Shown here one piece after another: positions 8,998 through 13,336 of a stretch of 64,000 bases of DNA. The first letter of the stretch is position 1; each line of letters begins with the position of its first letter. Source of the stretch: Ignavibacteriota bacterium (lineage in GTDB: Bacteria > Bacteroidota > Ignavibacteria > Palsa-1295). The notes under the pieces were generated by a model that saw nothing but the letters and a program-made list of their open reading frames with translations, made no database searches and was not told the origin of the DNA. The stretch covers positions 192,001-256,000 of the forward strand of contig CAWBEI010000002.1 in the NCBI GenBank assembly GCA_963787835.1, given 5' to 3'. A program made the translations under genes and the position numbers.

Positions 8998-10179
8998 ATG
9001 GCAAATCTTAACGAGCGAGAAAAAAACTCTTTCTTTCCAACTTACGAACGGCTCCCGATCGGTGCGGTGACGCACGCGGAGGGAGTGCATATCACGACCG
9101 ATGCTGGTAAAACATACCTCGATGCCATAGCCGGACTTGGCGTGAATGCGCTCGGGCACTCGCATCCAGCGATCGTTGAAGCGATTCGCGAGCAGGCAGG
9201 GAAGTATCTTCATCTCTCAAATTTGTATTTGCAGGAACCGCAGGTTCAGCTTGCTGAGAAGTTGGAGCGTCTCTCTGGAATGGAGCGCACGTTCTTCACG
9301 AATTCCGGCACAGAAGCTGTCGAAGGCGCGATCAAACTTGCTCGAAAAGTCTTTTCCAGTGAATACAAAGCGGAAGTGCTTGGTATTGCTAACGGATTCC
9401 ACGGGCGCACCTACGGTCCGCTTTCCGTGATGGACAAGGCAAAATACCGCGAGAACTTCGGGCCGTTTCTTTCGGATGCTTCCTGCATTCCGAGCTATGA
9501 TGTGGATGCGTTGGAATCGGCAGTTTCCGCTCGGACGGCGGCTGTTATCATCGAGCCGATTCAGGGTGAAGGCGGAATTATTGAAGTTCCGGTGGATTTT
9601 GCTCGAGCGCTTGCCGAGCTTGCCAAGAAGCATAATTTTCTCATTATTGCAGATGAAATTCAATCTGGAATTGGCAGGACTGGAAAATTCTTCGGCTACG
9701 AACATCTCGGAATGAAACCGGATATTGTGGTTTGCGCGAAAGCCATCGGCGGCGGGCTGCCGCTGGGTGCAATCCTCTCCCGAAAAGAAATTGCCGAAGT
9801 CTTCAAAGCAGGAACTCATGGTACGACTTTTGGCGGAAATGTTCTTTCATGCGTAGCAGGAAACGTCGTGCTCGATCTTGTTGAAAAAAGCTACATGAGC
9901 AATGCCGCAACTGAGGGCACCTACATCAAAACGAATTTCGTAGGGTTACAGGAGAAACATCCCAACTCCATCCGAGAAGTGCGTGGGCACGGACTGATGC
10001 TCGGCATCGAATTCACCTCGAATGCCAAGCAAGTGCAGAAGCAGTTATTCGATAATAATATTATCACGAATGTGACCGCCGGTGAAGTCCTGCGCCTGCT
10101 GCCGCCGCTTATTTTCGAGCGGAAGCATTCCGATGAATTGATCGATGGAATAAAAGAGGCGGTCGAGACGATGGATTAA
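8998..10179 (+). CDS. argD: Acetylornithine/succinylornithine aminotransferase (class III PLP enzyme)
   Basis: NSGTEAVEGAIKLAR, FHGRT, EPIQGEGG, DEIQSGIGRTG, AKAIGGGLPLGA, HGTTFGGN. Confidence 0.9.
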   Translation: MANLNEREKNSFFPTYERLPIGAVTHAEGVHITTDAGKTYLDAIAGLGVNALGHSHPAIVEAIREQAGKYLHLSNLYLQEPQVQLAEKLERLSGMERTFFTNSGTEAVEGAIKLARKVFSSEYKAEVLGIANGFHGRTYGPLSVMDKAKYRENFGPFLSDASCIPSYDVDALESAVSARTAAVIIEPIQGEGGIIEVPVDFARALAELAKKHNFLIIADEIQSGIGRTGKFFGYEHLGMKPDIVVCAKAIGGGLPLGAILSRKEIAEVFKAGTHGTTFGGNVLSCVAGNVVLDLVEKSYMSNAATEGTYIKTNFVGLQEKHPNSIREVRGHGLMLGIEFTSNAKQVQKQLFDNNIITNVTAGEVLRLLPPLIFERKHSDELIDGIKEAVETMD

Positions 10180-10233
10180 GGGGACAGAACCGGGATTACG
10201 CGGATTGAAGGGGATTACGCGGACGATTTTAGG
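10179..10233 (+). repeat. Left arm of ~55-bp inverted repeat flanking the GNAT gene
   Basis: AGGGGACAGAACCGGGATTACGCGGATT-GAAGG-GGATTACGCGGACGATTTT-AGG; matches the reverse complement of 10697-10752 (28-bp and 19-bp perfect blocks). Confidence 0.92.
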
Positions 10234-10249
10234 GGATGAGGAATAATTC

Positions 10250-10684
10250 TTATAAGTCTTTTACGAAGCGTTTCGTTTTCTCTTCGTAACCACAGCTCAA
10301 ATAGAATTGGTGCGTTTCGTGGCGTTGTATGCCGCTGGCAACCGCAATTCGCACGCATCCACTTTGTATTGCAAATGCTTCGACATGATCAATAAGTTTG
10401 CTTCCGATCCCTTGAGCACGCATAGTTTCCAGCACGCACATTGCGGTGATCGTTCCTATTCTTCCTTCCAGATGAAATGCTGGTTCCGAATCGAAACTTA
10501 GGAATCCAACAACTGCACCCTCCCGCTCTGCCGCAAAAACTTTCGCGCTCGCTCTCACCGACAATTCCTCCAACTTGCGAACAACGAATGAAGCATCCTG
10601 TGGATAGCCAAGTTGTGAAAGAAGAATAGCTAGCGCGTCGGCATCCTCATTCCCTGCTTCCCGGATTACAATGTCATGTGACAT
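10250..10684 (-). CDS. GNAT family N-acetyltransferase
   Basis: LLSQLGYP, acetyl-CoA motif RAQGIGSKL, HQFYLSCGY. Confidence 0.9.
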   Translation of the reverse strand: MSHDIVIREAGNEDADALAILLSQLGYPQDASFVVRKLEELSVRASAKVFAAEREGAVVGFLSFDSEPAFHLEGRIGTITAMCVLETMRAQGIGSKLIDHVEAFAIQSGCVRIAVASGIQRHETHQFYLSCGYEEKTKRFVKDL

Positions 10685-10696
10685 AAAAAATCAAAT

Positions 10697-10752
10697 CCTA
10701 AAAATCGTCCGCGTAATCCTTCCAAATCCGCGTAATCCCGGTTCTGTCCCCT
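10697..10752 (-). repeat. Right arm of ~55-bp inverted repeat flanking the GNAT gene
   Basis: CCTAAAAATCGTCCGCGTAATCC-TTCCA-AATCCGCGTAATCCCGGTTCTGTCCCCT; abuts and overlaps the yebC stop codon. Confidence 0.92.
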
Positions 10753-11476
10753 ACTTTAGATTATGATACACCGCCTGCACATCATCATCTTCTTCGAGCT
10801 TTTCGATGAGTTCCAGGACGGGTTCTTCGTCGGTTTCGGATAATTCTTTGAAGACGGTGGGCAGGCGTTGGACTTCCGCGCTTGTCACTGCGATCTTCCG
10901 TTCTTCGAGCGCTTTTGACATTCCTACAAAATCCGGGAAGGATGTCAGGATGGTCACTTCGGATGGTCGTTCATCCGTCCCTTCTTCGACTGTGATTTCC
11001 TCCGCGCCGAAATCGATCAGTTCCAATTCTAAATTATCAAGATCGATTCCTTCCGCCGGAAATTTGAACACGCCTTTACGCTCGAAAAGAAAATCAAGCG
11101 AGCCGGTGGTGGCAAGCTGACCGCCCGAGCGAACGAAGGCGCTGCGCACATTCGCGACGGTGCGCGTGGGGTTATCCGTCGCGCATTCCACGACGATCGG
11201 CACGCCCGATGGGCCGTAGCCTTCATACACCACTTCCTGAAATGCTTCCTGATCTTTGGAGGACGCGCGCTTGATCGCACCTTCGACGCGATCTTTGGGC
11301 ATGTTCACGCCTTTGGCGTTGGTGATGGCCATGCGAAGGCGCGAATTGCTATCGGGATCAGGGCCGCCCAATCGGACGGCAATAGCGATCTCTCGGCCAA
11401 TTTTGGTAAACGCTTTGGACATTTTGTCCCAGCGCTTAAATTTACGTGCTTTACGGAATTCGAATGCGCGACCCAT
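10751..11476 (-). CDS. yebC: YebC/PmpR family protein
   Basis: MGRAFEFRKARK, GGPDPDSNSRLR, YEGYGPSGV, TDNPTRT, LEEDDDVQAVYHN. Confidence 0.95.
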   Translation of the reverse strand: MGRAFEFRKARKFKRWDKMSKAFTKIGREIAIAVRLGGPDPDSNSRLRMAITNAKGVNMPKDRVEGAIKRASSKDQEAFQEVVYEGYGPSGVPIVVECATDNPTRTVANVRSAFVRSGGQLATTGSLDFLFERKGVFKFPAEGIDLDNLELELIDFGAEEITVEEGTDERPSEVTILTSFPDFVGMSKALEERKIAVTSAEVQRLPTVFKELSETDEEPVLELIEKLEEDDDVQAVYHNLK

Positions 11477-12429: not shown

Positions 12430-13336
12430 TTAGATCACATGCTCCGGGGCAAGCTCACAGCCGGGTGCCCCGCGCTCGACTTGAAGCGTGGTGTGCTCGA
12501 TGCCATAACGGTCATGCAATACGTGTGAGATCTCGAACAGGAGTTGATCATCCACGCTGCTTTCAGGAATAACAAGGTGCGCCGTGAGCACCACATGCGT
12601 GGTGCTCATCGCCCAAATATGCAGATCGTGAACCTCGCACACGCCCGGAACGCTCAGCAAATATTGCTCGATGGCAGCGGGATCGATCTGAGCGGGAACT
12701 GCATCGGCGGCGAGATTGAAGGAATCCCGCAAGACCGACCATGTCCCGAACGCGATCACGATGGAAATGATAATGCTCATCGCCGGATCGACCCATACCG
12801 CACCCGCCGCCATAATAATAATTCCCGCGATCACAACCCCGGCAGAAACAGCGGCATCGCCCGCCATGTGAAGGAACGCGGCCTTTACATTGAGATCGCC
12901 TTTTTCTGCCGCGTGCAAAGAGCCACGCAGACGCTGCATTCAGCACAATGCCAATTCCCGCAACAATAGAAACCACCCCACCCTCCACAGGAACCGGATG
13001 GTTGAGCCGCTCGATCGATGCGAATAAAATGGCGCCGGTGGTAACGAGCAGGATCCCGGCATTCAGCAGTGCAGCAAGGATCGTCGTGCGTCGGTAGCCG
13101 TAGGTGCGTTTCTGCGTCGGTGGACGCGCAGCCAGGATATTAGCGCCAAGCGCAAAAAGCAGGCTTAGAACATCCGTCAGGTTATGCCCCGCATCGGCAA
13201 TAAGCGCGATGGAATGGCTGAGAAATCCATAGATAACCTGAATGACCACGATCACAACATTCAACCCGATCGCGATCTTAAAACTCGCATTCGGGGACTC
13301 GCTGGCGGGTGCGTGATGATGGTGGTCATGCGGCAT
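12430..13336 (-). pseudogene. Cation diffusion facilitator (CzcD/ZitB-like) interrupted by a +1 frameshift, or a sequencing error
   Basis: N-half (HDHHHH, ALIADAGHNLTDV, TYGYRR) and C-half (DLNVKAAFLHMAGDA, VHDLHIWAMST, HTTLQVE) lie in different frames. Deleting one base of the T5 run at 12901-12905 restores GRKGDLNVK. Confidence 0.85.

Follow-up and report, generated by a model that had tools for sequence, protein, structure and literature searches.

A GNAT acetyltransferase gene bounded by inverted repeat arms of the family that brackets GxxExxY genes in an Ignavibacteriota genome

Genes that move or are exchanged between fixed ends are known from several systems. In an integron gene cassette a promoterless gene carries an attC site behind it and is served by the IntI integrase, and minimal mobile elements are exchanged through their flanking genes and hence stay at one site. 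The latter elements are named for Neisseria in PMC1538595, and the locus described here resembles them in that conserved flanking genes (argD-yebC, and at a second site ybaB-recR) enclose variable content. Ssn nucleases offer a further likeness: a compact gene for a single-domain nuclease has its own repeat (NTS/SRM) on its flanks, and the genome holds many free copies of this repeat; the published account gives 42% of ssn homologs as flanked by the repeat on both sides (Chenal et al. 2025, PMC11893778). REPIN/RAYT systems likewise show inverted doublets and singlets of an extragenic repeat that also flanks the gene of its cognate enzyme (Bertels and Rainey 2011, PMC3116915), and mobile insertion cassettes (MIC elements) such as MIC231 are described as one passenger gene between inverted repeats with no transposase inside (PMC3913671). 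The enzyme gene associated with the repeats studied here is GxxExxY, a widespread family of the PD-(D/E)XK type that is listed as PF13366, function unknown (PMC3424549).

The argD-yebC locus and the arm family

In the window, by which we mean the whole 64,000-nucleotide stretch of DNA analysed, a GNAT gene lies between the convergent genes argD and yebC and is enclosed by two inverted repeat arms (Table 1). The first-pass annotation of this DNA had described the arms as perfect blocks of 28 and 19 bp around a 5-nt variable segment, built from GGATT-periodic units of 9–10 nt, anchored on the argD TAA and the yebC TAG and enclosing a single intact GNAT gene. Each of these features was confirmed. 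The arms are 52 nt each, 90% complementary and separated by 470 nt, with 28 perfect, 5 mismatched and 19 perfect positions and GGATT-like units every 9–10 nt; the left arm shares the final base of the argD stop (10177–10179), the right arm shares two bases of the yebC stop, and GNAT is the sole ORF of at least 80 aa between them. No target duplication is visible at this locus, also as annotated, and there was no excess across 22 arm pairs, where the mean shared flank word was 3.64 compared to 3.57 with shuffled partners. The outer 8 nt are identical in both window arms; with these included, the arms rank second and first of 109 as each other's best partners, and with these removed, 12th and 8th.

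Table 1. Features of the argD-yebC locus in window coordinates
Feature	Position	Strand	Remarks
argD-like class III aminotransferase	8998..10179	+	PF00202; TAA anchors left arm
Left arm, member of genome-wide GAACC-GGATT repeat family	10179..10230	+	Reads away from argD stop
GNAT acetyltransferase, 144 aa	10250..10684	-	Co-oriented with yebC
Short A/T-rich leader, right arm to GNAT start	10685..10700	-	
Right arm	10701..10752	-	Reads away from yebC stop
yebC/TACO1 gene	10751..11476	-	PF01709, PF20772; TAG anchors right arm

Contig pieces from four DNA sequencing runs, fragmentary and identical to the window, span both arms (e.g. 9971–10234 and 10590–10792). A single joint that skips 465 nt was considered as an empty site; it has a 30-nt side and most likely stems from another short arm pair, and was therefore not counted. 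Upstream of yebC, a cation-efflux-like gene that is one ORF in the relative G010 appears split across two overlapping ORFs in the window (12430–13336), a possible frameshift.

The best NCBIfam match of the GNAT protein is aminoalkylphosphonate N-acetyltransferase, at 59 bits under a cut-off of 142, and the best match of a PDB search was weak (E 2.7e-6). No consensus promoter was found on the GNAT strand, and expression of the gene is therefore probably by read-through from yebC.

Searched genome-wide, as the annotation had proposed, the arms proved not to be unique but to exist in about 110 copies. Allowing for as many as 3 mismatches, a 19-nt anchor gave 86 matches in the 3.57-Mb genome compared to 1 in the reversed genome, so the arm is not a chance sequence; a broader arm pattern gave 95 and 1 matches, respectively, and the union with the anchor matches comprised 110 arms. 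The start of the arm fell at −6 to +15 nt of a same-strand stop codon in 45 of the 110; 1000 draws of random intergenic positions averaged 4.1 and peaked at 11. Thus, the stop-codon position is a habit of the arm family and not special to argD-yebC. As in REPIN/RAYT systems, the arms occur both as doublets (23 inward pairs of less than 3 kb, with spacers varying widely from 65 to 582 nt) and as singlets (64 of the 110 unpaired under strict adjacency). The annotation had also considered that the arms might be independent single copies only, and this turned out to be half true, given the unpaired majority and the general anchoring at stops. The individual arm is a direct-repeat array for which no internal inverted repeat was listed, and arms also adjoin plain host genes, by eye purS, rplO, secY and murB-like and sixA-like ORFs. 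The only ORFs of at least 120 aa within inward arm pairs of less than 3 kb in the window genome are the GNAT and GxxExxY genes.

Two further arrangements were observed. In some units (G000:C2:1180485, G000 being the window genome, and loci L035 and L131) a third arm of the same orientation lies at the stop of the enclosed gene itself, which could permit excision of an arm-gene circle. At L153 (G002:C1:589518-589727) an arm pair, by eye, stands in place of a gene start, for which the arm seems to provide a new in-frame ATG and N-terminus.

GxxExxY genes and GNAT genes in arm-bounded slots

A link of GGATT-periodic arms to GxxExxY genes had been suggested in the annotation, and it was borne out at all three such genes of this genome and at 30 of 32 testable loci overall. 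Each of the three PF13366 genes lies inside an inward arm pair of 574–582 nt, similar in layout to the 556-nt GNAT unit, and the enzyme genes enclosed by arm pairs match PF13366/TIGR04256. The family is present in 21 of 24 relatives, with 53 matches; inspection covered 30 loci returned from these relatives and 3 from the window genome, and the 32 testable ones gave the count above. The same inverted-repeat bracketing was found for none of 23 recR, none of 17 argD and 1 of 24 yebC control loci, and for 6 of 14 GNAT homologs. GxxExxY was co-oriented with its upstream gene in 28 of 31 loci, an uncontrolled count that was left out of the evidence. Screening the species-genome collection for arm pairs ~540–600 nt long gave nine loci, seven with GxxExxY, one with GNAT and one with purS; the GNAT match and one GxxExxY match already belong to the relatives' set, and the purS locus is a composite in which the gene sits between two short arm pairs.

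The GNAT gene was located in 11 of 35 family genomes, always as one copy per genome, and at four metagenome loci, one of which duplicates G010, giving 14 distinct loci; 35 further protein homologs that came without genomic context were left out of the analysis. Five of these loci, in G000, G002, G010, L131 and L132, lie at the 3′ end of yebC with arms on both sides. Three lie between ybaB and recR, with both arms in G006 and G009 and with the left arm only in G001, where the gene is frameshifted. The remaining six carry no arms: G005, G007, G012, G018 and G042, whose proteins are 45–58% identical, and a frameshifted copy in L134 (73%). At all eight arm-linked loci the GNAT gene is on the same strand as its upstream gene and follows an arm at or just past the stop of that gene. 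Since only two independent sites are involved, the six bracketed homologs do not represent six events.

The ybaB-recR interval offers a graded series. Both genes are visible in 22 of the 24 relatives, with a short gap of 9–41 nt in 14 and a longer, armless gap in 2. G014 holds a 70-nt arm remnant, G005 an arm pair around the remnant of a GxxExxY N-terminus (identity at 11 of 19 aa, E 1.6e-5) and G010 arms around an intact GxxExxY gene, and G001, G006 and G009 hold the GNAT gene. One slot therefore holds the nuclease gene or the passenger gene in the same layout. Convergent stops are no explanation for these arms, as the two genes are co-directional and the right arm runs up to the start of recR. 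The idea of a cargo swap raised in the annotation thus gains comparative support, for which the series at ybaB-recR is the best evidence, though it is one site. No recR match was found in the window genome assembly, compared to one in each of the 24 relatives, and the gene is probably missing through an assembly gap.

Descent of the GNAT gene and turnover around it

Divergence between G000 and G002 placed the GNAT gene among its neighbours, with dS of 0.96 for GNAT, 0.82 for yebC and 1.47 for argD; GNAT dN was 0.18 and dN/dS ~0.19. Between G000 and G006, GNAT dS was saturated and yebC dS was 0.69. Since it parted from the copy in the closest relative, the gene has thus descended vertically under purifying selection, and the neighbour-like dS together with the single copy rules out recent transposition. 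The earlier view of the locus as a non-autonomous unit actively mobilised in trans does not agree with a gene that is single-copy and has diverged like its neighbours.

Older history is less regular. The species tree groups G000, G002, G006 and G014, whereas in the GNAT DNA tree G006 pairs with G009 (support 98/93), and a species-like GNAT clade of G000, G002 and G006 was rejected (p-AU 0.0007), from which it follows that the GNAT likely changed site at least once. Monophyly of the GNAT by site was not rejected (p-AU 0.28 and 0.17), nor was it demonstrated. The trees are best read as likely two old site-linked GNAT lineages and one or more moves, followed by vertical descent under selection.

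The comparison of argD-yebC junctions that had been suggested showed stop arms kept in some relatives and, in the close ones, an interval of greater length and complexity. By eye, 6 of 14 genus relatives (G002, G006, G009, G010, G013 and G014) carry an arm after the yebC stop, whether or not a GNAT is there, and 5 of 13 (G002, G006, G009, G010 and G012) have a full arm or a remnant behind the argD stop. One or two membrane glycosyltransferase-like genes occupy the interval in G002, G006, G014, G009 and G005, and G013 has such a gene after yebC; no ortholog was found in the window genome, where the best match was 33%. Because close relatives carry these genes, the one-gene look of the locus is probably secondary. 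In G002 an arm precedes the start of the glycosyltransferase-like gene and an arm tip of the same orientation lies at the argD stop, and recombination between the two would leave the layout seen in the window. The tight one-gene layout is also found in the more distant G010 and in L132, whose tree position is unsettled, so a glycosyltransferase loss in the window lineage needs repeated loss or a gain followed by loss. The discrete cassette of the annotation is not upheld, given a yebC-stop arm that persists in relatives without the GNAT and an interval that close relatives share with glycosyltransferase genes.

Other details of the interval were recorded on the way. The membrane glycosyltransferase-like genes are in tandem in G002 and G006 (L061, L062), with an arm between the copies in G002. 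At the argD stop of G002 (L044) a 13-nt palindrome of two fused arm tips joins the convergent stops and could be a collapse footprint. In G001 (L012) a small gene pair that by eye resembles a nucleotidyltransferase-HEPN module is flanked by a duplication of the yebC 3′ end.

We compared gene content at 278 junctions syntenic between G000 and 800 kb of G002, with ORFs from a simple script. Content differed at 9 of 29 arm-bearing junctions compared to 45 of 249 others, which is not significant (Fisher p 0.13), and at 10 of 41 junctions with hairpin repeats compared to 35 of 208 (p 0.27); the notion of the arms as a general cargo platform was dropped for lack of a significant excess. Each genome has an arm at ~7% of these junctions (19 and 20 of 278), and arm presence differs, by pattern, at 19 of the 29, although in at least two cases the other genome has a degenerate arm there. 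Turnover between the two genomes is also seen for short arm pairs. The arms are subject to turnover, and the GNAT is not.

A 120-aa gene with its own inverted repeats, presumably similar to four-helix-bundle proteins, stands at G000:C2:1157190-1157658 where G002 has a solo arm (L175:12400-12457). At C2:1240290 and C2:361168 the window genome carries a GTCATT-type hairpin, putatively SRM-like, where G002 has an arm pair or a GxxExxY unit, and one repeat family seems to be substituted for another in a given slot. A convergent junction with arms at both stops in G002 (L165, G002:C3:112900-115900) encloses a gene for a 403-aa secreted-type protein; its counterpart G000:C5:239745-242146 keeps the left arm with other content of ~2.4 kb, making it a candidate second cargo slot.

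Origin of the GNAT slot and comparison with known systems

Weighing these data, we slightly favor a reading in which both arms are copies of the terminal repeat found around GxxExxY nuclease genes and scattered over gene junctions of the genus, and the GNAT is a passenger in an arm-bounded slot of a selfish element that it entered long ago by arm-to-arm recombination and in which it is now stable; a change of slot at least once is likely. GxxExxY units and their empty derivatives would first have seeded arms at stop codons, where the association with arms is observed and a nuclease-driven spread is our inference. Arms shared in this way would then let the interior of one slot replace that of another, which would account for a ybaB-recR slot with GxxExxY in G010 and the GNAT in G001, G006 and G009; recombination is the presumed step here, and the two slots, one of them shared, are what was observed. 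On parsimony, the glycosyltransferase gene or genes between GNAT and argD would next have been lost in the window lineage, plausibly by recombination between same-orientation arms that left a one-gene unit. Vertical descent under purifying selection since the closest-relative split, as found above, would complete the sequence.

The first alternative, which we consider unlikely, is that the locus is a composite look-alike in which stops acquire arms one at a time or as short pairs, convergent genes each with an arm mimic an inverted pair, and the GNAT moved by ordinary rearrangement or horizontal transfer. The anchoring of arms at stops, the many unpaired arms, the yebC-stop and argD-stop arms kept in relatives whatever sits between, the purS locus, the lack of significant gene turnover at arm junctions and the six armless GNAT loci all suit this alternative. 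What argues against it is that arms at so small a share of junctions nevertheless stand upstream of GNAT at all eight loci of both sites, that the co-directional ybaB-recR shows the same arm layout around GxxExxY, and that the outer 8 nt of the window arms are identical. If it were true, it would warn that stop-anchored repeats can fake cassettes at convergent junctions.

Quite improbable in our judgement is the model of the first-pass annotation, now with GxxExxY recognising the arms and still mobilising a non-autonomous cassette in trans. The GNAT unit does come close to the GxxExxY units in size and layout, intact GxxExxY genes lie elsewhere in the genome, the arm pairs of the collection scan hold seven GxxExxY, one GNAT and one composite, and the short arm pairs show turnover between G000 and G002; these points are set against one GNAT copy in every family genome that has it, its neighbour-like dS to G002, no target duplication, and the greater length and complexity of the interval in close relatives. 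An RNA role, in which yebC read-through would pair the arms into a long stem that controls GNAT expression as an RNase III site or a stabiliser, is suggested by a fold predicted for the yebC strand with the arms paired around the ORF as a 52-bp stem (z −8, 0 of 100 shuffles as good) and by the absence of an intrinsic terminator match between the convergent argD and yebC, but is highly improbable as the explanation, with an inverted-repeat score of 42 here against 10–19 at the other six two-arm GNAT loci and no account of the second site or of the genome-wide arm family.

Beyond the passenger reading lies a more tentative proposal, possible but doubtful, that GxxExxY itself drives a hitherto undescribed form of cassette exchange. 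It would seed and cut arms at stops, and repair through the shared arms would swap slot interiors, capturing promoterless passengers, this GNAT among them, into host transcripts with neither transposase nor integrase; the outcome would resemble that of integrons but be reached in a new way. The arm, the short pairs and the full units are defined substrates for testing the GxxExxY nuclease, which, if sequence-specific by analogy with Ssn, could serve both as a new tool and as a new means of capturing genes. The ybaB-recR states (empty, remnant, nuclease and passenger) serve as natural alleles, and they show that the repeat-bounded slots of GxxExxY can hold other genes.

The literature covered on REP/RAYT, MITE, MIC and minimal mobile elements, which largely excludes subscription papers, contains no description of this system. 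It differs from Ssn in its PD-(D/E)XK GxxExxY partner in place of a GIY-YIG enzyme, in an arm that is a non-palindromic GGATT array and pairs only with a second arm, and in a non-nuclease passenger found in the slot of the nuclease. Unlike REPIN/RAYT, it lacks a palindromic REP unit, its arms are not associated with an HUH/Y1 enzyme, and its spacers range over 65–582 nt. Unlike MIC elements, it shows no target duplication, though old insertions could have lost theirs, and no sign of recent transposition, and its partner is a GxxExxY gene in place of a DDE transposase with matching ends. In contrast to minimal mobile elements, the same gene is found at two sites, each bounded by repeats, and we take the two inverted arms of the window to differ from the attC layout of integron cassettes. 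With the repeat-armed GxxExxY units the locus shares the arm family, with GNAT and not GxxExxY as the content. Compared to all of these, what is new is a non-nuclease passenger gene, probably old and stationary, in the slot of a repeat-plus-nuclease element.
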